Origin: Bacillota bacterium
Lineage (GTDB): Bacteria > Bacillota_I > Bacilli_A > RF39 > UBA660
NCBI GenBank assembly: GCA_023460995.1
Contig: JAEWOE010000002.1
Coordinates: 77,809 to 141,808, forward strand
DNA length: 64,000 bases
Reading direction: 5' to 3'
A model generated the notes under the pieces. The model ran no database searches and had not been told where the DNA came from. It saw nothing but the letters and a program-made list of their open reading frames with translations. Position numbers and translations under genes: made by a program. Of this stretch, positions 3,438-23,583 are shown piece by piece. How positions within the stretch are numbered: the stretch's first letter is position 1; each line of letters starts with the position of its first letter.

Positions 3438-4673
3438 ATGGGCGAGCTATATGCGTTTAAACAAGATAAAAATAAATATGAATCACAAATAGGTATAGAA
3501 GAAAATGTTTTTAATAAACAAAAATTAATGAAGGAATATCAAGATAAAACTAAAAGGTATTTAGGGACGGCAATTAGTATTATCAATAAAAACTTTAATA
3601 TTAATTATTCTATGAATAAGGAAGCTGTAGGTATGACTGCAACTTTTCAGAAGATAAATACAATTGTTAGAAAAACAGATCAAGAGATCTCAATTGAAAT
3701 GGAACAATTAAGTAATCAAATACCAAATTTAGCGGTAAGCGATGATATCAAAGAAACAATTGAACTAGCTATAGAGATAGTTACAATTTATTGTACTAAC
3801 GGGGTTGAAAATTCAGCGGTTGCTTCAACTGCCGATATAAATGTTTTTGAAGATAATAAAGTAATAAATGAAACAAGGCTGAATCAAAATTCTGAAAGTG
3901 TTACCGAAAAACAAGATTCAAATATAGTTCAGGAAATTAATGAAAAAGTACCACCTTTAAAAAAAGACAGTCCCTTTATTTCATATAAAGTTAAACTAGG
4001 ATTATTAATAATACCAGTTGTATCATTATTTATGACTTTTGTGTTATTTATTATCCTAAAAGTTCTATCTAAATTGCCATTTTTCTCAAATATAATTGGT
4101 AGTGGAACTTCAAGTATGTTATATGTAATATTTTTCTATGGTTTATTATTCTTATTTTCATGGTTAGTAACCAGCTTTATCTCATCATTTATAAGTGGCA
4201 GAACAAATAATAAAATATCCTTTATGATATTGCCTTTTTCTTTGCTTATTTTATTAATAATTGTTTCAAAAATAGTTATAGATTATGTAACAGTAAAACA
4301 ATTACTAGATGTAGTATCATTATTATATATTAATGTTTATTATGCATGTGCCATTATAATACTATATACGTTTATGCCATTATTTTATATTTTATCAGTA
4401 TTCCAAAAGCATACCAAAACGAGTATAGTTGAATTTATTGATATAAGTATAATAATATATGTAGGTATTTTACCTGGAATAAAACATATATTAGAAGTCC
4501 TTAAAATAGATCAGTTTAAAGGTGTATTTAATGCATTATATAATTATCCAAAACAAAAAATTGTTTTTATTATATTAATAATTATTTGTATTTTATCTAA
4601 TATAATTTATTCTTTTATTAAATATAAAAAAGGTAGTAAAAGTAGTGAAAATATAGAAAGTAGTGAAGCATAA
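3438..4673 (+). CDS. hypothetical membrane protein (N-terminal soluble/coiled-coil region plus 6 or more TM helices)
   Basis: Long ORF with own extended -10 (TGTATAAT) and GGGTAGGGA RBS. Hydrophobic C-terminal two-thirds. Confidence 0.5.
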   Translation: MGELYAFKQDKNKYESQIGIEENVFNKQKLMKEYQDKTKRYLGTAISIINKNFNINYSMNKEAVGMTATFQKINTIVRKTDQEISIEMEQLSNQIPNLAVSDDIKETIELAIEIVTIYCTNGVENSAVASTADINVFEDNKVINETRLNQNSESVTEKQDSNIVQEINEKVPPLKKDSPFISYKVKLGLLIIPVVSLFMTFVLFIILKVLSKLPFFSNIIGSGTSSMLYVIFFYGLLFLFSWLVTSFISSFISGRTNNKISFMILPFSLLILLIIVSKIVIDYVTVKQLLDVVSLLYINVYYACAIIILYTFMPLFYILSVFQKHTKTSIVEFIDISIIIYVGILPGIKHILEVLKIDQFKGVFNALYNYPKQKIVFIILIIICILSNIIYSFIKYKKGSKSSENIESSEA

Positions 4674-4706: not shown

Positions 4707-4736
4707 TTGACAAGTGTCACATACTACGCATATAAT
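4707..4736 (+). promoter_or_regulatory. promoter TTGACA-18-TATAAT overlapping an ACAAGTGT box (4710-4729)
   Basis: Consensus -35/-10 immediately upstream of the Nudix gene. Box ACAAGTGTCACATACTACGC is shared with two boxes at 5451-5520. Confidence 0.5.
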
Positions 4737-4755: not shown

Positions 4756-5430
4756 ATGGAAGTTAAAAATCCATTATATAAAAATCAGGGTATACATGCT
4801 ATTTCTGCTATATTTACGGTAGACAAAGGAATTACTAAAGTACTACTGATAAAAAGGAATAATGAACCATTTAAAGGTATGTGGGCTTTAGTAGGCGGAG
4901 CTCTTTATAATAATGAAACTTTAGATCAAGGTATAAAAAGAGAGATAGAAGAGAAAATTGGTATTAATATTAAAAATATTGAAATGTTTGATATTTTTAG
5001 TAAGATCGATAGATCACCAGTGATGCGAATGATCGCTGTAGGATATATAGGAATTGTTGATTCATCAAAAGTTGAAGTTGTTAAAAAAACTGTAAAAACT
5101 AGTGATGCTGACTGGGTTCCAATTGATAAAATTGGAAAACTTGCTTATGACCATAATGAAATAATTAGTAAAGGAATAGAAGTTCTAAAGCAAAAAATAG
5201 TCAATACAGATATTTTGAAAAGTTTATATCCAGAAGGATTTACACTTCCAGAAATTCAAAAAACTTATGAAGCTATTTTGAGTAAGGAACTAGATAGAAG
5301 AAATTTTAGAAAGAAAATGCTTAGCTTAGATTTAATTTATGATACTGGTTTAGCAAAGAAGTTTGAGGGAACTAAACCAGCAAAAATATATAAGTTTAAA
5401 GAAAATAGAAAAAGTAAAAATGTATTTTAA
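4756..5430 (+). CDS. NUDIX hydrolase with NrtR-like C-terminal winged-helix domain (ADP-ribose pyrophosphatase / Nudix-related regulator family)
   Basis: Intact Nudix box GGALYNNETLDQGIKREIEEKIG. C-terminal FTLPEIQKTYEAIL...RRNFRKKM resembles NrtR DNA-binding domain. True start is ATG 4756 after AGGTGA (the track start 4747 is a GTG inside the RBS). Confidence 0.65.
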   Translation: MEVKNPLYKNQGIHAISAIFTVDKGITKVLLIKRNNEPFKGMWALVGGALYNNETLDQGIKREIEEKIGINIKNIEMFDIFSKIDRSPVMRMIAVGYIGIVDSSKVEVVKKTVKTSDADWVPIDKIGKLAYDHNEIISKGIEVLKQKIVNTDILKSLYPEGFTLPEIQKTYEAILSKELDRRNFRKKMLSLDLIYDTGLAKKFEGTKPAKIYKFKENRKSKNVF

Positions 5431-5447
5431 TACATTTTTATAAACTT
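5418..5447 (+). terminator. rho-independent terminator after Nudix gene
   Basis: AAAAATGTATT/AATACATTTTT hairpin overlapping the stop codon, followed by a T-rich run. Confidence 0.5.
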
Positions 5448-5450
5448 ATA

Positions 5451-5520
5451 ACAAGTGTATTATACTACACATAATAGTAATACGCTTTTATATAGATTTA
5501 ACAAGTGTATCAAATTACAC
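5451..5520 (+). promoter_or_regulatory. two ACAAGTGTAT operator-like boxes (5451-5470 palindromic GTGTATTATACTACAC; 5501-5520 GTGTA-N6-TACAC)
   Basis: Direct repeat of ACAAGTGTAT 50 nt apart, each with an inverted-repeat partner TACAC. Same motif occurs at 4710. Confidence 0.45.
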
Positions 5521-5538
5521 TTAAAGAAAGGAAAGTAT

Positions 5539-6132
5539 ATGTTTATTAATTTAAAAGAAGGAAAGTTAACGCTTTATGATTTGGTTGTAAGTAAGAAAAT
5601 GCAACCTGTTCTTGAAAGAATATCTTATGAAGGCATAAAAGAACATCATTCATTTACTGCTACACATTGGTGTAGGGAAGGAAGAAGAACAGATAATACT
5701 ATAGTAAGAAATATGTACTGGCAAAAAACAGGAAGGGTAATTGAATATAATGATTTCTATTCGCAAGATGAAGATGAGTATTTAATAAATTATGATTTAT
5801 ATAAGCTTCCTAATTTATATTTAATAATTGAAAGTTTATTAAATGAAAATTATGAAACGCTAGATGAACTATCAAAATATCAAAGAAAAGAAAATTTAAA
5901 TGCTATAGAAAAGGAAATATTTATTAAACACAAAAAGGAAATATATGATTATATATACTTAAGAAAAATCATTGAATTAGATCCGACTGCAGGCTTGGAA
6001 TTAATAAATATTTTAAAATTAAATAGCAAGGGAAAACTAAAAGCTAATTTAAAAAATATTAAGCAATATTTAAATATATATAGTCTAGATTTAGAAGGGA
6101 TAAAAGTTAAGGTGAAAGTTGATGAAAAATAA
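5539..6132 (+). CDS. hypothetical protein
   Basis: AAGGAAAG RBS then ATG at 5539 (the track ORF starts earlier at 5455). No recognisable domain. Confidence 0.5.
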   Translation: MFINLKEGKLTLYDLVVSKKMQPVLERISYEGIKEHHSFTATHWCREGRRTDNTIVRNMYWQKTGRVIEYNDFYSQDEDEYLINYDLYKLPNLYLIIESLLNENYETLDELSKYQRKENLNAIEKEIFIKHKKEIYDYIYLRKIIELDPTAGLELINILKLNSKGKLKANLKNIKQYLNIYSLDLEGIKVKVKVDEK

Positions 6133-6568
6133 TAATATTTTAGAGTTAAGTGAAATTGAAAATAAGTTTAATGAGATACAGGATGAAAGAAGTAATATTT
6201 TAAAAAGAATGCGCGAACTAGAAAAGTTGGATGTTATTAATGAGTATCAAAAGTTATGTTCTAGTAATGAGACACTATATAGGCAACAAAATAGTTTAAG
6301 AGAAAGATATACTAATTTAAAACAAAAAAACTGTTCACATCCTCTTTGGTATTTTATTAAAGAAGAGACCGATACATATGAAGGAAGAACATACTATACA
6401 TGTAGATGTTTAGAATGTAATTTAGTTGAGGAACGTAGAAGCAGAGATTTTGATGATGTTATTAGGGGTGATTATAGTAAGATTAAAGATGAGTATAATA
6501 ACAGAAAATCATCCCCATCAGTTAAAGCAGTTCAAATGATAAAAAAATATAGTGGGAGAAATAAATGA
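6122..6568 (+). CDS. hypothetical coiled-coil protein with C-terminal Cys cluster (CSHP...CRCLECN, zinc-ribbon-like)
   Basis: AAGGTGA RBS, ATG 6122 overlapping the upstream gene end; Cys/His cluster. Confidence 0.5.
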   Translation: MKNNNILELSEIENKFNEIQDERSNILKRMRELEKLDVINEYQKLCSSNETLYRQQNSLRERYTNLKQKNCSHPLWYFIKEETDTYEGRTYYTCRCLECNLVEERRSRDFDDVIRGDYSKIKDEYNNRKSSPSVKAVQMIKKYSGRNK

Positions 6569-7122
6569 TCTATTTATTAAGACATGGTCAAGATGATGAA
6601 AGTTTTATAGGAGGACATTCTGATGTTGAACTTACTCTAACAGGTATTTCACAAGTCATGGAGACTACAAATTTCCTAAAGAATAATAGTTATAAAATAG
6701 AGAGAATTATATCAAGTGATATAAAAAGAGCGAGGCAGACAACTGAAATAGTCATTGAAAGTTTAAATATACCTATAGAATATACAAGTATGTTAAGAGA
6801 ACTTGATAAAGGTAACTTAAATGGCTTACCAGTAACGCAAGCTAAAATATTATATCCAGAATTTATTAATGTAGAAGACATCTATACCAAATATCCTAAT
6901 GGCGAATCTATGCAGGATTTTTATGAACGAATTAAAGGTGATATTGATAAAATACTTGCCTTAGATAATTCATTATTAGTCACCCATCGTGGTGTAATTA
7001 ACATGTTATATTTCATTTTAAATAATTTAGAACCAAATATGGACAAGAAGCAATTTGGAGCTGAACACGCTTCACTTCATGAATTAGATCCTAAAAGTAA
7101 AGTTATTAAAAAAATAAAATAG
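6565..7122 (+). CDS. histidine phosphatase superfamily (phosphoglycerate-mutase-like) protein
   Basis: N-terminal LLRHGQ (RHG catalytic motif) and later LLVTHRGVIN second His; start overlaps upstream stop (ATGA). Confidence 0.7.
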   Translation: MIYLLRHGQDDESFIGGHSDVELTLTGISQVMETTNFLKNNSYKIERIISSDIKRARQTTEIVIESLNIPIEYTSMLRELDKGNLNGLPVTQAKILYPEFINVEDIYTKYPNGESMQDFYERIKGDIDKILALDNSLLVTHRGVINMLYFILNNLEPNMDKKQFGAEHASLHELDPKSKVIKKIK

Positions 7123-7131
7123 GAGATTAAT

Positions 7132-8268
7132 ATGGGAAAAATAGTAGGAAAAATCGTTTTAACAGGAGGGCCTTGTGCTGGAAAGACAAGTGCTCTTACA
7201 AAAATTGAAGAAGAGCTAACAGAAAAAGGCTTCAAAGTATTTATTGTTAGTGAAAGTGCAACTGAATTAATAAAAGGTGGGATTAAACCATTTGGTAGAA
7301 TGCCAATTGATTTAATCAAATTTCAAAGTTTAATATTAAAGTATCAATATGAAAAAGAAAAAATATATGAAGAGGCAGCAAAAAGTTTAGGTGATGATGA
7401 GAAATGTATTATCATTCATGATAGAGGTTTACTTGATAATAAAGCGTATATCAACCAACAAATTTTTAATCAGTTACTTAATGAACAAGGCTTAAAAGAA
7501 TTAGAAATAATGGATAACTACAATATGGTAATTCATTTAGTAACTGCGGCTGACGGAGCAGAGGAGGCCTATACTCTAGGAAATAATGTCGCTAGAACAG
7601 AGACTATCGAAGAGGCAAAAGAACTAGATAATAGAACTGTAAATGCTTGGGCTGGACATCCAAACTTAAGAATTATAGGTAATGAAAAAGATTTTGCCGC
7701 TAAACTTCAAAATGTTATTGATGAAATAAATAACCTAATTGGAGAACCTGTTTCAATTAGAAAACAAAGAAAATTTTTAATTGATTTAGAAAATTCTGAT
7801 TTATCATTTTTAACAGAAGATAATTCAACTGCTATTCATATAGAACAAACATATATAAATGATAATTCTGATGTTGAAACAAGACTTAGAAAAAGAACTT
7901 ATAATGATCAAAGCTGCTACTATTTAACAGTTCAAGTAAAAGAAAAAGACGGTAAATCAACTGTTTTAACAAATAGAAAGATTACTGAAAAAGAGTATAC
8001 TAAACAGTTATCAACTGCCGTTTCAACTACTTCGGTATCCAAAGATAGATATTCATTTTCAAAAAATAAACAGTATTTTAGATTAGATATATTTGATGCA
8101 ATGAAAAAGTATGCTTTACTTGAAATAGACCCTACTTATGAAAATTCTAGAATTAAACTACCTAAGGAAATTAAAGTTATAGAAGATGTTACTAATAGTC
8201 CTTATTACGACAATCATGTAATATCAGAAATGGTTACTCACGAAAAAAATAAAGTTTTAAATAAATAA
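7132..8268 (+). CDS. P-loop ATPase/kinase (AAA_28, NadR-RNK-like) fused to C-terminal CYTH-like domain
   Basis: Walker A GGPCAGKTS, IIHDRGLLDNKAY Walker B-like region. C-terminal segment with RKQRKFL...ETRLRKR...LLEIDPTYE resembles triphosphate-tunnel (CYTH) fold. Confidence 0.55.
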   Translation: MGKIVGKIVLTGGPCAGKTSALTKIEEELTEKGFKVFIVSESATELIKGGIKPFGRMPIDLIKFQSLILKYQYEKEKIYEEAAKSLGDDEKCIIIHDRGLLDNKAYINQQIFNQLLNEQGLKELEIMDNYNMVIHLVTAADGAEEAYTLGNNVARTETIEEAKELDNRTVNAWAGHPNLRIIGNEKDFAAKLQNVIDEINNLIGEPVSIRKQRKFLIDLENSDLSFLTEDNSTAIHIEQTYINDNSDVETRLRKRTYNDQSCYYLTVQVKEKDGKSTVLTNRKITEKEYTKQLSTAVSTTSVSKDRYSFSKNKQYFRLDIFDAMKKYALLEIDPTYENSRIKLPKEIKVIEDVTNSPYYDNHVISEMVTHEKNKVLNK

Positions 8269-8426: not shown

Positions 8427-9599
8427 ATGACAGTTGTTTCAATGAATTATTTATTAGAAGCAGGCGTTCACTTTGGTCATCAGACTAAAAGATGGAACCC
8501 AAAAATGAAAGAGTATATCTTTACTTCAAGAGATGATATTTATATTATCGATTTACAAAAAACTGCTAAAAAGATTGAAGAGGCTTATGCAGCTTTAAAT
8601 GCTATAGCAGCTAATGGTGGTAAAGTATTATTCGTAGGAACAAAAAAACAAGCAGTAGAGGCTGCTAAAGAAGAAGCTACTCGTTCAAATTCATTCTATG
8701 TTACAGAAAGATGGTTAGGTGGAACTTTAACAAACTTCAAAACAATTAGAAGCAGAGTTAAAAGATTAGAAGAAATCGAAAAAATGGAAAAAGATGGTAC
8801 TTTTGAAGTACTACCTAAAAAAGAAGTTATCGGTCTAAGAAAAGAGTATGCAAAACTTGATACTTTATTATCAGGAATAAGAGGAATGTATAAATTACCT
8901 AGTGCTATGGTTATAGTTGATCCTTCAAAAGAAGATATCGCTATTAAGGAAGCTAGAAAATTAAATATTCCAGTATTTGGTATCGTAGATACAAATTGTG
9001 ATCCTGATATGGTTGATTATGTAATCCCAGGTAATGATGATGCAATTAGAGCAGTTAAATTAATTTTAGGTGTTTTAGCTAATGCTATCGTTGAAGCTAA
9101 CGGTGGACAATTAGTAAATTATGTATCTGCTGATGAAAAACAACCAACTGATATTATGCAAAAAGCATTAGAAACAGTTAAGAGAAAAGAAGACAGACCA
9201 AGAAGATTTGATAATAATAGATCAAATGATAACAGATCAAATGACAGAAGAGATAACAACAGACCATTTAATAGATATAACAACAATAGACCTAATGATA
9301 ATAGATCAAATGATAGTAGACCTAGCGATAATAGATCGAATGATTATAGATCAAATGATAGAAGAGAATTTAGAAGAGAAGATAGACCAGTAGTAGAAGC
9401 TGTAAAACCTATAGTAGAAGAAAAAGTTGCTGTTAAGGAAGTTGCTCAAGTAGTAGCTCCAGTAGAAGTAAAAAAAGCCGTAGTTAAAGAAGATATGACT
9501 ACTAAAACAGTTGCAGAACTTCGTGATTTAGCAAAAGCTAAAGATGTAAAAGGTTATTCAACAATGAAAAAAGCAGAATTAATTGATGCTTTAAAATAA
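8427..9599 (+). CDS. rpsB: 30S ribosomal protein S2 with long C-terminal extension (N/D/R/S-rich linker plus Rho_N-like domain)
   Basis: [19 protein letters not shown]2 signature. GGAGGA RBS then ATG 8427. About 140 extra C-terminal residues ending [30 protein letters not shown]. Confidence 0.9.
9205..9370 (+). repeat. imperfect tandem repeat (about 15 nt unit AATAGATCAAATGAT) inside rpsB 3' region
   Basis: Repeated GATAATAGATCAAATGA(T/C)A units encode NDNRSND-type peptide repeats. Confidence 0.7.
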
Positions 9600-9608
9600 A
9601 TTATTTAT

Positions 9609-9638
9609 AGATGATTGAGAAATCATCTTTAATTTTAA
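9609..9638 (+). terminator. intergenic hairpin (partial terminator/attenuator) between rpsB and tsf
   Basis: AGATGATT-GAGA-AATCATCT stem-loop followed by TTAATTTT. Confidence 0.45.
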
Positions 9639-9653
9639 AAGGAGAAAAAATTT

Positions 9654-10529
9654 ATGATAAGTGCTAGTTTAGTAAAAGAATTAAGAGAATCTACAGGTGC
9701 TGGAATGCTTGATTGCAAAAAAGCACTAGAAGCTACTAATGGAGACATGGATGCTGCTGTAGATTGGCTAAGAGAAAAAGGTATTTCAAAAGCTGCTAAA
9801 AAAGCTGATCGTATTGCTGCTGAAGGTTTAGCTGAAATAAAAATTTCTGGAAATATTGCTGCTATAGTAGAAGTAAATTCAGAAACAGATTTTGTTGCTA
9901 AGAATGAAGAATTTACTTCAATGGTTGATGCAATTCTTACTACAATTATTGCAAATACTCCTGAAACAGTAGAAGATGTACTTGCTTTAACTTATGAAAG
10001 TGGAACAATTAATGATTTAATCGTTAATAAAACAGCTAAAATTGGAGAAAAATTATCATTAAGAAGATTCGAAAGAATTGAAAAAAATGATAATCAAGTT
10101 TTTGGTTCATACATTCATATGGGTGGAAGAATTGCTGTTTTAACATTAATTGAAAATGCTAGTGAAGAAGTTGCTAAAGATGTTTCTATGCATTCTGCAG
10201 CAATGAGACCTGCATATGTTAAATCTTCTGATGTTCCAACTGATGTACTTGACAAAGAAAAAGAAATAATGAAAGAACAATTACTAAATGAAGGTAAACC
10301 TGCTGATAGAATCGAAGGTATCCTAGTTGGTAAAGTTAAAAAATATTATGAAGATGTTTGTCTTGAAAATCAAATCTTTATTAAAGCAGAAAATAAAGAA
10401 ACAGTTGCTGAGTTCGTAGCTAATAATGGTGGAACAATTTCTACTATGGTTCGTTATGAAGTTGGTGAAGGAATGGAAAAAAGAGAAGAAAATTTTGCAG
10501 AAGAAGTTGCAAAACAAATTAACGGATAA
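9654..10529 (+). CDS. tsf: elongation factor Ts
   Basis: LVKELRESTGAGMLDCKKAL UBA-like N-terminus and conserved EF-Ts core. Confidence 0.95.
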   Translation: MISASLVKELRESTGAGMLDCKKALEATNGDMDAAVDWLREKGISKAAKKADRIAAEGLAEIKISGNIAAIVEVNSETDFVAKNEEFTSMVDAILTTIIANTPETVEDVLALTYESGTINDLIVNKTAKIGEKLSLRRFERIEKNDNQVFGSYIHMGGRIAVLTLIENASEEVAKDVSMHSAAMRPAYVKSSDVPTDVLDKEKEIMKEQLLNEGKPADRIEGILVGKVKKYYEDVCLENQIFIKAENKETVAEFVANNGGTISTMVRYEVGEGMEKREENFAEEVAKQING

Positions 10530-22058: not shown

Positions 22059-22958
22059 ATGGAAGGGTATATAAATGATTTTATTGAGTTTCTTGAAATA
22101 GAAAAACATTATTCTAACGAGACCACAGAAAATTATAAATTAGATTTATATTTATTTTTAGAATACTGTAAAGAAAATGAAATAAGTAATTTTAATAACA
22201 TAACTTATGATGATTTAAGAAAATACTTAGTTTATTTATCAAATATAAAAAAATATTCAAATAAATCTATATCAAGACATATAAGTTCTCTTCATAGTTT
22301 ATACAATTACTTAATTGATGAGAGAGTAATTAATAGTAATACTATGAATTTAATAAATAGTCCGAAAAAAGAAATGAGACTTCCTACATATCTTACTACA
22401 AATGAACTTGAGGATATCATTAATACCCCTGATAGAACTAAGAAAGTCGGTAAAAGAGATGTATTAATACTTGAAATGTTTTATGCAACAGGTATTAGAC
22501 TTCATGAACTTGTTAATATTAAAATAAGTGATATTGACTTTAAAAACAAAAAAATAAAGATATTAGGTAAAGGGTCAAAAGAAAGATATGTTTTATATGG
22601 AGATAAGTGTAGGGATTATTTAGAAGATTATTTAAATAATTCACGAAATTATTATTTAAAGGAAGCAAGTGATTATTTATTCTTAAATCAACATGGAAAA
22701 GTACTTACTACATCTGGAATAGAATTTTTAGTTAAGAAGGTACTAAAAGAAAGTGGCACTAATCTTAAACTTACTCCCCATGTACTAAGGCATACCTTTG
22801 CCACGCATATGCTTAATGAAGGAGCAGACTTAATGACTGTAAAAGAATTATTGGGGCACTCTAATCTATCAACAACAGGAATTTACACTCATGTATCTAA
22901 CGAACATTTAAGAAAAACATATTTAAGCGCTCATCCAAGAGCAAGGAAGGAAAAATAA
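22059..22958 (+). CDS. tyrosine recombinase, XerC/XerD family
   Basis: C-terminal LRHTFATHMLNEGADLMTVKELLGHSNLSTTGIYTHV with catalytic R..H..R..Y arrangement. Confidence 0.8.
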   Translation: MEGYINDFIEFLEIEKHYSNETTENYKLDLYLFLEYCKENEISNFNNITYDDLRKYLVYLSNIKKYSNKSISRHISSLHSLYNYLIDERVINSNTMNLINSPKKEMRLPTYLTTNELEDIINTPDRTKKVGKRDVLILEMFYATGIRLHELVNIKISDIDFKNKKIKILGKGSKERYVLYGDKCRDYLEDYLNNSRNYYLKEASDYLFLNQHGKVLTTSGIEFLVKKVLKESGTNLKLTPHVLRHTFATHMLNEGADLMTVKELLGHSNLSTTGIYTHVSNEHLRKTYLSAHPRARKEK

Positions 22959-22959
22959 T

Positions 22960-23583
22960 ATGGCAAAATTATATTTTAGATATGGCGCAATGAATTGCGG
23001 AAAGACTACTGCCCTTATACAGGTGGCTTATAATTATGAAGAAAGAGATCAAAGCATTGTCTTGATAAAACCTTCAGTAGATTTAAAGGGATCTGATCAT
23101 GTAATTACAAGAACAGGTTTAAATAGAAAAGTTGATAATTTAATAAAACCAGATGAATCTATTATAGAAACATTAAAAGGAATATTTAATAAAGTCAATT
23201 GTATTTTAGTAGATGAAGCACAGTTTCTAACTGAAAAACAAATAGAAGAGTTATTTGTTATAACTAAGATATATGAAGTTCCAGTTATTTGTTATGGACT
23301 TAGAACTGATTTTAAAACTAATTCGTTTCCAGGAAGTAATAGACTTTTAGAACTTGCGGATGAACTTACTGAGCTTGCGACTATTTGTAGATGTGGTAGT
23401 AAGGCTAGATTTAATGCTAGAAAAGTAAATGGAGAGTTTGTTTCAGAAGGGGCACAAGTTGCTATAGATGAGATGGATAATGTTACCTATGAATCTGTTT
23501 GTGGTAAGTGTTATTTAGAGAAAGTCATGAACTATGAAAAAGGCAAAGTATTAACCTTTAAAAAAAATGATAAAAAAGTGTAA
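22960..23583 (+). CDS. tdk: thymidine kinase
   Basis: MNCGKTTALIQ P-loop, VDEAQFL, C-terminal CRCG...CGKC zinc ribbon. Confidence 0.9.
   Translation: MAKLYFRYGAMNCGKTTALIQVAYNYEERDQSIVLIKPSVDLKGSDHVITRTGLNRKVDNLIKPDESIIETLKGIFNKVNCILVDEAQFLTEKQIEELFVITKIYEVPVICYGLRTDFKTNSFPGSNRLLELADELTELATICRCGSKARFNARKVNGEFVSEGAQVAIDEMDNVTYESVCGKCYLEKVMNYEKGKVLTFKKNDKKV

Follow-up and report, generated by a model that had tools for sequence, protein, structure and literature searches.

A putative NrtR-controlled operon with a histidine phosphatase and a kinase-CYTH protein in an uncultured gut Bacilli genome

A 64-kb stretch of contig JAEWOE010000002.1 (positions 77,809–141,808; hereafter, the window) from the genome of an uncultured gut bacterium (Bacillota, Bacilli), with a GC content of about 27%, was found to contain a cluster of five consecutive open reading frames (ORFs) on the plus strand (4756–8268). 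Judged from their layout and promoter regions, these genes form one regulatory unit. They encode an NrtR-type regulator, two small proteins (g2 and g3), a histidine phosphatase (hisPhos) and a protein in which a P-loop kinase domain is followed by a domain of the CYTH/triphosphate tunnel metalloenzyme (TTM) fold (kinase-CYTH). The data allow us to assume that this is an autoregulated operon of an NrtR repressor and that its kinase/phosphatase pair acts in the pyrimidine deoxynucleotide branch of metabolism in preference to that of nicotinamide adenine dinucleotide (NAD). We estimate the probability of this reading as a whole at about one half. Its regulatory part, namely autorepression combined with repression of a second promoter and relief by a ligand, appears to be well supported by comparison of the related loci. 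The superfamilies of the components are known, and their combination under NrtR seems to be undescribed; no paper was found in literature searches for bacterial kinase-CYTH proteins, for CYTH with nicotinamide riboside (NR) or for NrtR with a histidine phosphatase.

An identical contig is present in an ENA metagenome, for which independent gene calls gave proteins of 224, 197, 148, 185 and 378 aa. The ORFs and these gene calls bear out the initial annotation of this DNA, in which five plus-strand genes with tight or overlapping junctions were reported: two junctions overlap, by 11 nt at 6122/6132 and as ATGA at 6565/6568, and at 7122–7132 the genes are 9 nt apart. The lengths of 198 and 149 aa given there for the small proteins become 197 and 148 aa when the ATG starts are used. 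The location between rpsU-yqeY and rpsB was also described properly: rpsU, yqeY and a gene for a 411-aa membrane protein are situated upstream of the cluster, and rpsB-tsf downstream. Pfam analysis of the five proteins revealed NUDIX and NrtR_WHD, His_Phos_1 and AAA_28 domains, as had been proposed for the regulator, the phosphatase and the kinase, while genes 2 and 3 had no match. A search of the cluster with Rfam and ARAGORN revealed no RNA family and no tRNA. The features of the cluster are as follows (positions in the window).

4707–4736, plus strand: nrtR promoter (TTGACA, 18-nt spacer, TATAAT), 12/12 consensus positions
4712–4731, no strand assigned: predicted operator O1, AAGTGTCACATACTACGCAT, a diverged GTGTA-N6-TACAC palindrome between −35 and −10
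4756–5430, plus strand: nrtR, 224 aa, Nudix-like effector domain and NrtR-type winged helix
5414–5441, plus strand: A/U-rich 12-bp hairpin with a U run, spanning the nrtR stop codon
5448–5475, plus strand: second promoter-like site (ATAACA, 16-nt spacer, CATAAT) for g2-g3-hisPhos-kinase
5453–5472, no strand assigned: predicted operator O2, AAGTGTATTATACTACACAT, core exact
5503–5522, no strand assigned: predicted operator O3, AAGTGTATCAAATTACACTT, a perfect 7+7 palindrome
5539–6132, plus strand: g2, 197 aa, occupant of a variable slot, no known family or fold
6122–6568, plus strand: g3, 148 aa, coiled-coil-like N-terminal half and probable zinc ribbon
6565–7122, plus strand: histidine phosphatase of branch 1, 185 aa, Pfam His_Phos_1
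7132–7740, plus strand: kinase domain (aa 1–203) of the kinase-CYTH protein, NadR-RNK/thymidylate-kinase fold
7747–8268, plus strand: CYTH/TTM-fold domain (aa 206–378) of the kinase-CYTH protein, EXEXK reads R-K-Q-R-K

The cluster was compared with related loci (designated L002 and so on). When one genome per species was scanned, relatives of the kinase-CYTH protein proved to be encoded in at least 573 stretches; the comparison covered the best 80 loci. An nrtR gene lies upstream of the kinase gene in 27 of them (26 evaluable for the CYTH signature EXEXK), and 53 are NrtR-less. The co-location of the genes, which the initial annotation had put up for checking, was confirmed: the trio of NrtR, phosphatase and kinase was found in 21 relatives, and NrtR with the kinase but without the phosphatase in six more.

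The first protein of the operon matched NUDIX with 54.5 bits (1.6e-14; cut-off 21.1) and NrtR_WHD (PF21906) with 72.6 bits (3e-20; cut-off 27). The closest solved structures were Bacteroides AraR (BtAraR, 5bs6, 6e-35) and Shewanella NrtR (3gz5, 7.5e-25), and both domains were aligned. The Nudix box of the protein is G-x5-E-x7-R-E-I-E-E-K-I-G-I. Because the second Glu of the EE pair of REUXEE is replaced with a Lys that is invariant across the NrtR orthologues (26/26), the earlier description of this box as intact was wrong. The altered box fits the non-catalytic Nudix pattern that is usual for NrtR proteins (PMC2330246). The sugar-contacting Arg/Arg/His residues described for AraR, which have spatial counterparts in SoNrtR (PMC4666351), are conserved in the NrtR of the window. 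In common with the NrtR and AraR regulators, the protein has a Nudix-like effector domain combined with an NrtR-type winged helix, a Nudix signature changed at a catalytic position, and palindromic operators with a GT...AC core in its own and target promoters; the tandem sites in the window resemble those of AraR. Based on this architecture and operator type, the protein is assigned to the NrtR family. However, the putative targets are different, since they are a kinase-CYTH gene, a histidine phosphatase gene and variable small genes and not those of NAD, pentose or ADP-ribosylation pathways. No NAD or pentose genes were recognised in the operon or the flanks of the 27 NrtR-linked loci, and the predicted regulon corresponds in content to none of the described NrtR regulons.

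The nrtR promoter is sigma-70-like with a perfect consensus, and the palindrome O1 is embedded in its spacer. O1 contains two mismatches in the 10-nt core and is a predicted autorepression site; better copies were found at the orthologous positions of other loci. In 16 related loci the sequence preceding nrtR was read, and most of them have the TTGACA-operator-TATAAT layout there, with an operator spacer of N5 or N6. The second promoter-like site has the same geometry, with O2 in its spacer, and O3 is located 50 bp from O2, immediately 5′ of the g2 ribosome-binding site. The 64-kb window contains two exact copies of GTGTA-N6-TACAC, both located between nrtR and g2. This exceeds chance, as 0.02 copies are expected and none of 100 shuffles reached two. 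In the 27 related loci, the density of GTGTA-N5/6-TACAC was 44 per 49 kb of nrtR-to-kinase zones vs 20 per 1,022 kb elsewhere, a 46-fold enrichment. The palindrome recurs before whichever gene comes after nrtR, be it hisPhos, the thymidine kinase (TK) gene, the kinase gene or a g2-like gene, and in L069, where nrtR is not nearby, a promoter with an operator is located directly 5′ of the kinase gene. The spacer is N6 in the lineage of the window and N5 in relatives, and the N5 form equals GT-N7-AC, the published core of the NrtR operator (PMC2330246).

The hairpin at the nrtR stop codon has a fold energy of −9.2 kcal/mol (z −4.1) and has counterparts, with stems of different sequence, at the same position in L004, L059 and L073. 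It may act as a weak terminator or attenuator that separates nrtR from the genes downstream. A palindrome at 5418 was considered as a fourth operator and was dropped: since the stem changes while the hairpin and the U run persist, it was attributed to the terminator-like hairpin. In L008, a perfect GTGTA-N6-TACAC was found between the kinase stop codon and rpsB (9026–9041); it could have arisen by chance, or NrtR could touch the rpsB-tsf promoter there.

According to the proposed mechanism, NrtR dimers would bind GTGTA-N5/6-TACAC at the nrtR promoter and, twice, at the second promoter past the weak terminator. By analogy with the characterised NrtR and AraR proteins, a ligand with a ribose or pentose moiety would bind in the Nudix pocket, where the diphosphate-binding Nudix box is near-complete and probably catalytically compromised, and thereby release NrtR and permit transcription of g2-g3-hisPhos-kinase. 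The cargo would be a pair of enzymes, a cytosolic branch-1 histidine phosphatase and a P-loop small-molecule kinase.

The kinase domain of the last protein was recognised as AAA_28 with 68.4 bits (1.1e-18; cut-off 27). GGPCAGKT, D97-R98 and R155 are invariant, and the domain is nearest to the ribosylnicotinamide kinase (RNK) domain of NadR and to thymidylate kinases. Modeling of the kinase-CYTH protein using AlphaFold2 led to a model with a predicted local distance difference test score (pLDDT) of 88.7 and a predicted TM-score (pTM) of 0.88. The top match of this model in a Foldseek search was the AtTTM1 tandem (7z67, 2.6e-8), and its kinase domain matched thymidylate kinases. The whole-chain TM-score to AtTTM1 was only 0.27, so the packing of the domains differs.

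In order to evaluate the CYTH-like domain suggested in the initial annotation, the C-terminal half was scanned against Pfam as a single sequence, but this was fruitless: CYTH (PF01928) did not match the window protein at E ≤ 10, and it matched four of 25 close homologues. A single-sequence search of the PDB with the kinase-CYTH protein gave no useful match either. The family profile, in contrast, matched the NE1496 TTM, a tripolyphosphatase (5e-9), with no NadR chain among the PDB matches at E ≤ 1, and the model predicts the C-terminal domain to be an eight-stranded beta-barrel of the CYTH/TTM tunnel fold. The fold assignment thus held even if the Pfam family did not, and the NrtR, His_Phos_1 and AAA_28 assignments stand together with it. 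The CYTH signature EXEXK is R-K-Q-R-K in the window protein. Residues R251, R253/R255, K304 and R306 vary little or not at all and correspond in the alignment to R39, R41, K85 and R87 of NE1496, whereas the catalytic K52 of NE1496 is replaced with Gln268; the C-terminal acidic pair of the domain is kept. The plug helix is the last element of the protein, and no membrane segment is present in the model.

Two known systems resemble the kinase-CYTH protein. NadR consists of a helix-turn-helix (HTH) domain, a nicotinamide mononucleotide (NMN) adenylyltransferase and an RNK; its kinship is remote at the sequence level, and, unlike NadR, the window kinase has no adenylyltransferase domain or pnuC partner, carries CYTH after the kinase domain and is regulated by a separate NrtR. 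The plant proteins AtTTM1/2 are also composed of an N-terminal small-molecule kinase and a TTM domain in which the glutamates are replaced and the basic tunnel residues kept. However, their kinase belongs to the uridine-cytidine kinase (PRK) family, whereas that of the window is of the AAA_28, thymidylate-kinase-like type and has no PRK match, and their C-terminal coiled coil and membrane anchor are absent from the window protein. The TTM domain of AtTTM1 is catalytically dead (Glu to Gln) and was proposed to regulate the kinase, and the kinase-TTM tandem was called unique to plants (PMC9582702). An older mention of CYTH fused to a "nucleotidyl kinase", as cited in PMC8233210, comes without a function. 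Since the defining features of each are lacking, the kinase-CYTH protein is neither a NadR nor a canonical TTM. Its family is large, with more than 3,800 proteins scored as relatives; the two RefSeq/GenBank names seen for members are both only "AAA family ATPase".

A comparison of the CYTH signatures revealed a clear split of the family. The first Glu of EXEXK is absent in all evaluable NrtR-linked proteins (26/26) and the second one also in 21 of them, whereas E-x-E-x-K is kept in 50 of the 53 NrtR-less proteins. The three exceptions are L013 (phosphatase-linked, on a 3-kb contig), L054 (on a 2.7-kb contig) and L069 (with the NrtR operator upstream). In a neighbour-joining tree, the 29 proteins without the glutamates form a single clade. 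The loss of the motif coincides in this clade with linkage to NrtR and to the phosphatase, and the three are therefore traced to one transition.

An N-terminal XRE-type HTH domain and an intact EIERK motif are present in at least 26 NrtR-less proteins, about half of them (L029, 7776–9110; L035, L020, L033 and about 22 other loci). Pfam analysis of four such relatives found HTH_3 and AAA_28 in all four and CYTH in three, in two of them above the threshold. A TCTAC-N5-GTAGA palindrome is located just upstream of 12 HTH-type genes, which account for 13 of its 21 matches in 1.07 Mb. Since the HTH fusion is common, the wider family can be regarded as an enzyme that is often also DNA-binding, like NadR; HTH-kinase-CYTH would then be a NadR-like enzyme/regulator architecture, which was not found described. 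In six Clostridia loci, a gene for the S component of an energy-coupling factor (ECF) transporter (PF07155, 3e-13) adjoins the kinase-CYTH gene on either side (L020, 355–924; L024, 7219–7782; L043, 7081–7707; L045, 9149–9682; L049, 8883–9431; and L071), which hints at uptake followed by phosphorylation. No riboswitch was found with Rfam before these pairs, and the FMN riboswitch of L043 is 4 kb away.

The phosphatase was assigned to His_Phos_1 with 111.7 bits (4.7e-32; cut-off 21.7), and its catalytic core is complete, including the RHG motif (LLRHGQ, residues 4–9), the conserved acidic Glu and the second His (THRG near residue 141). The best NCBIfam match was the CobC alpha-ribazole phosphatase TIGR03162 (89.4 bits vs 162.9), and the score was below every equivalog cut-off. 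The best solved relatives were the FBPase-2 domains of PFKFB, and CobC. PFK-2/FBPase-2 and CobC have the same complete branch-1 core, and the window phosphatase is likewise paired with a P-loop kinase; in PFK-2/FBPase-2, however, the kinase and phosphatase are fused, while the window phosphatase is a separate polypeptide. Its orthologues adjoin the kinase gene in the 21 NrtR-linked trios and in L013, and close orthologues were found only beside kinases of the glutamate-less clade. The only further match, that in L063 (3e-9), belongs to a distantly related branch-1 phosphatase encoded on the other strand.

Since the sister polypeptide joins HTH, kinase and CYTH with an intact signature, the window operon may be a split form of a regulator-kinase-phosphohydrolase triad, in which NrtR acting in trans would replace the HTH domain in cis, and a separate phosphatase would replace the hydrolysis lost by CYTH. 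The CYTH domain itself would serve as a sensor of a phosphate ligand and not as a hydrolase, as proposed for AtTTM1/2. The kinase/phosphatase pair would most likely control how far a nucleoside-type metabolite is phosphorylated, in the service of salvage or of pool control. Six NrtR-linked loci have no adjacent phosphatase, which weakens the suggestion that this enzyme replaces CYTH catalysis.

The genes between nrtR and hisPhos were found to be variable. Among lineages with at least 90% identical NrtR and identical flanks, two different cassettes are found in this slot. One consists of g2 and g3 and is present in the window, L002 and L092; the other, present in L003, L082–L091 and L093, encodes a P-loop protein of 181 aa, a radical SAM protein of 405 aa and two dCTP deaminases. 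The alternative cassette of L003 (4667–7434) occupies the same slot as 5539–6568 of the window. The deaminases match TIGR02274 (98 bits). The radical SAM protein matches MoaA (54 bits) and shows a weak viperin likeness (PADLOC pVip, 4.6e-11), and its C-terminal half is unmatched. In L087, no gene was called where other loci hold the radical SAM gene and the first deaminase gene. In more distant relatives, a thymidine kinase gene (PF00265, 1e-34) is found within or beside the operon; this applies to 12 NrtR-linked loci, with at least three arrangements.

The g2 protein has only 15 close relatives, no Pfam family and no assignable fold; g2-like genes were found in the same operon of L011, L062 and L017. 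A 278-aa gene before the kinase gene in L034/L050 resembles g2 by eye, but homology is not claimed since the HMM score was not significant. The N-terminal half of g3 is helical, and C71, H73, C94, C96 and C99 are invariant in the alignment, which probably form a zinc ribbon. A search with the g3 family profile retrieved 129 cluster representatives. Genes similar to g3 adjoin the kinase gene in L059 and, under an HTH-type operator, in L037 (two copies) and L056, and are directly preceded by an orthologous nrtR in L097/L098. Therefore, g3 repeatedly accompanies this system, whichever of the two regulator types it has.

Several other arrangements were noted in the related loci. The nrtR and g3-like pairs of L097 (1421–2710) and L098 (946–2235) have no downstream kinase gene, and tandem pairs of g3-like paralogues are present in L096 (3406–4504, beside SASP, EzrA and ThiI genes) and L037 (4814–5934). 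In L031, a 220-aa Cys-rich protein without a family match (7292–7951; RHSPIRRG, FVRHHEG and CxxCGGC) is encoded between hisPhos and the kinase gene, as a further occupant of the variable part. A MYG1/UPF0160 gene (2e-57) comes after the kinase gene in the NrtR-linked loci L014 (9117–10121), L018 (10701–11699) and L019 (2659–3600). In L006, a second Nudix gene (9576–10139), with a box that is complete by eye, is located about 500 bp downstream of the kinase gene.

The choice of the deoxypyrimidine branch relies on the neighbouring thymidine kinase and dCTP deaminase genes, on the thymidylate-kinase-like fold of the kinase domain and on its thymidylate-kinase-like DRx...AY motif; the kinase also matches the PHROG "thymidylate kinase". 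The known route via thymidylate kinase and TK1 differs from the window protein in that the latter has an extra CYTH domain, lacks the Gln of AYQ and scores far below the cut-off of the dTMP kinase model TIGR00041 (15.6 bits vs 83). Among the possible substrate classes, the largest share, although short of even odds, falls to something else, including a signal metabolite set by a kinase/phosphatase pair; a deoxypyrimidine is the next and is thus tentative, and NAD or NR comes last as a doubtful one.

A number of observations weigh against the operon model preferred here or against its substrate branch. The thymidine kinase gene of the window genome (TK1 type, 22927–23580) lies elsewhere, 15 kb downstream of the operon, with no operator nearby, in contrast to the 12 relatives that have it in or beside the operon. 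Thymidylate kinases read thymine via the Gln of the AYQ motif, and this position is I/V/M in the kinase. The best structural match of the kinase is the RNK domain of NadR, and the best named relative of the phosphatase is CobC, whose substrate is a ribotide; both point to NAD. The operators of the window have the N6 spacer and not the N5 one that gives GT-N7-AC. The loss of the motif and the two linkages represent one evolutionary event and not many independent ones, and the six NrtR-linked loci without an adjacent phosphatase count here as well.

The first alternative, which we consider rather unlikely, is a module for the salvage of NAD or NR. In this case, ADP-ribose from NAD consumption would lift NrtR repression, the AAA_28 kinase would phosphorylate nicotinamide riboside or nicotinic acid riboside to the mononucleotide, as the RNK of NadR does, and the CobC-like phosphatase would trim pyridine ribotide or phospho-ADP-ribose species. 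NAD genes are linked to 42 of 62 analysed nrtR genes and ADP-ribose is the tested effector (PMC2330246), which counts against the deoxynucleotide branch; however, the closest solved relative of the window regulator is the arabinose sensor AraR and not an ADP-ribose-responsive NrtR, and its score with the NCBIfam NrtR equivalog is 122.6 bits against a cut-off of 400 bits. The NadR-like HTH_3 and AAA_28 layout of the sister subfamily, the alpha-ribazole phosphatase as the best NCBIfam match and the vitamin-type ECF S component beside the kinase in six Clostridia loci agree with such a module. Nevertheless, pnuC, NMN adenylyltransferase, nadD/E, pncA/B and nadV were found in none of the 80 neighbourhoods, NMN adenylyltransferase and PnuC being absent both from the recurrent neighbour families of these loci and from the Pfam-scanned flanking genes, and the neighbours that do recur are thymidine kinase and dCTP deaminases. 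The initial annotation had suggested a nucleotide or NAD salvage or signalling module; this general class appears to be right, while its NAD-specific part found no direct support. The operators, the loss of the catalytic residues of CYTH, the Glu-to-Lys change of the Nudix box and the HTH-fused sister subfamily are absent from that annotation.

It is less probable still that the kinase and phosphatase oppose each other on one low-abundance regulatory phosphometabolite, similarly to PFK-2/FBPase-2. This metabolite might be a new nucleotide-like signal, with the CYTH domain and NrtR as the sensors that set its level. The FBPase-2 domains of bifunctional PFKFB are indeed the best solved relatives of the phosphatase, but this likeness is at the superfamily level only (E about 1e-12). 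The phosphatase gene immediately precedes the kinase gene, with short gaps or overlaps between them, although not in the six NrtR-linked loci mentioned above. Linkage to a regulator, by HTH fusion or a neighbouring NrtR, is the rule in the kinase-CYTH family, and the developmental switch of AtTTM1/2 needs both the kinase and the TTM module (PMC9582702); on the other hand, no candidate metabolite or receptor could be named. A further reading, to which we attach equally little weight, regards the HTH-fused and split forms as two interchangeable builds of the triad. In this reading the triad would control the level of a new phosphorylated metabolite of the nucleoside type, the effector would not be ADP-ribose, and lineages would exchange nucleotide-modifying cassettes in the NrtR-gated slot, namely thymidine kinase, or radical SAM with kinase and dCTP deaminases, or g2 with g3, possibly to make or handle non-canonical nucleotides.

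A mobile accessory island or an anti-phage defence system inserted between ribosomal protein genes is very improbable: the polymorphism of the nrtR-hisPhos slot among very close lineages and the alternative cassette (a weakly viperin-like radical SAM protein, a P-loop protein and two dCTP deaminases) would suit it, but the radical SAM protein matches MoaA better than viperin, PADLOC did not recognise g2, g3, the phosphatase or the kinase, and the chromosomal position is retained at 43–47% kinase identity. A further point in favour of defence is that NAD breakdown products, to which NrtR proteins respond, rise in some phage defences. The only PADLOC match of the cluster was that of NrtR over its Nudix domain (PDC-S07, 1.6e-9), and PHROGs analysis of the five proteins revealed generic phage families only. 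When the kinase-CYTH protein was used in tblastn searches, none of 50,697 phage records was matched and, among 72,556 plasmids, only one, a Miltoncostaea chromid with uninformative neighbours. The GC content and skew of the cluster match those of the flanks, and no integrase, repeat or tRNA was found at its borders. The idea of an accessory island, as put forward in the initial annotation for the whole cluster, was thus not confirmed, and only the inner slot is variable.

The NrtR-linked loci all belong to uncultured metagenome-assembled genomes (MAGs) of the Bacilli/Mycoplasmatota type, and the identity of their kinases to that of the window ranges from 41 to 94%, the highest value being that of "MAG: Bacillota bacterium OH_PBB_246". 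The position between rpsU-yqeY and rpsB-tsf is common to L002, L003 and L008. In L009, L023 and L062, rpsU-yqeY is kept upstream; on the downstream side, either no rpsB-tsf was found or the contig stops short. The kinase identity to the window is 43–47% in L008, L009 and L062, and 70% over a partial gene in L023. The chromosomal position is retained across species, and the cluster can therefore be considered an old resident and not a recent island.

With a repressor whose operators can be read and a tightly linked phosphatase, the locus offers a testable handle on the kinase-CYTH family, and the CYTH domains with and without EXEXK, together with the HTH-bearing sister form of the enzyme, provide a natural comparison. 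If the substrate is a pyrimidine deoxynucleotide, the operon would represent a salvage step under regulation in uncultured gut Bacilli, whose genomes are small in at least one case (a chromosome of 1.49 Mb in L004). With nicotinamide riboside as the substrate, the route would be independent of NadR. With either substrate, the NrtR family would gain a third kind of regulon in addition to those of NAD and pentoses.

Some other features of the window were also noted. The frame of the TK gene overlaps the end of the preceding 306-aa ORF, which by eye may encode a Xer-type recombinase. The 411-aa multi-pass membrane protein encoded between yqeY and nrtR (3438–4673) has no Pfam or NCBIfam family; its gene is kept at this place in L002, L003 and L023 and is absent in L008, L009 and L062. 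Ribosomal protein S2 (8427–9599) consists of 390 aa, about 140 aa more than its usual length. L002 and L003 share its C-terminal extension, in which repeats rich in Asn, Asp and Arg (NDNRSND...) occur and which ends with a Rho_N-like domain. No tRNA genes were found in the 64-kb window, and the only Rfam family above the threshold was the ribosomal protein L21 leader (RF00559, 39416–39485, 51 bits). Upstream of rpsU, a metal-handling cluster (10–2458) encodes a membrane protein with HMA and DsbD-like parts (498–1814) and an FtrD-like lipoprotein (1901–2458), and in the matching contig these genes are preceded by that of an HMA-domain P-type ATPase.

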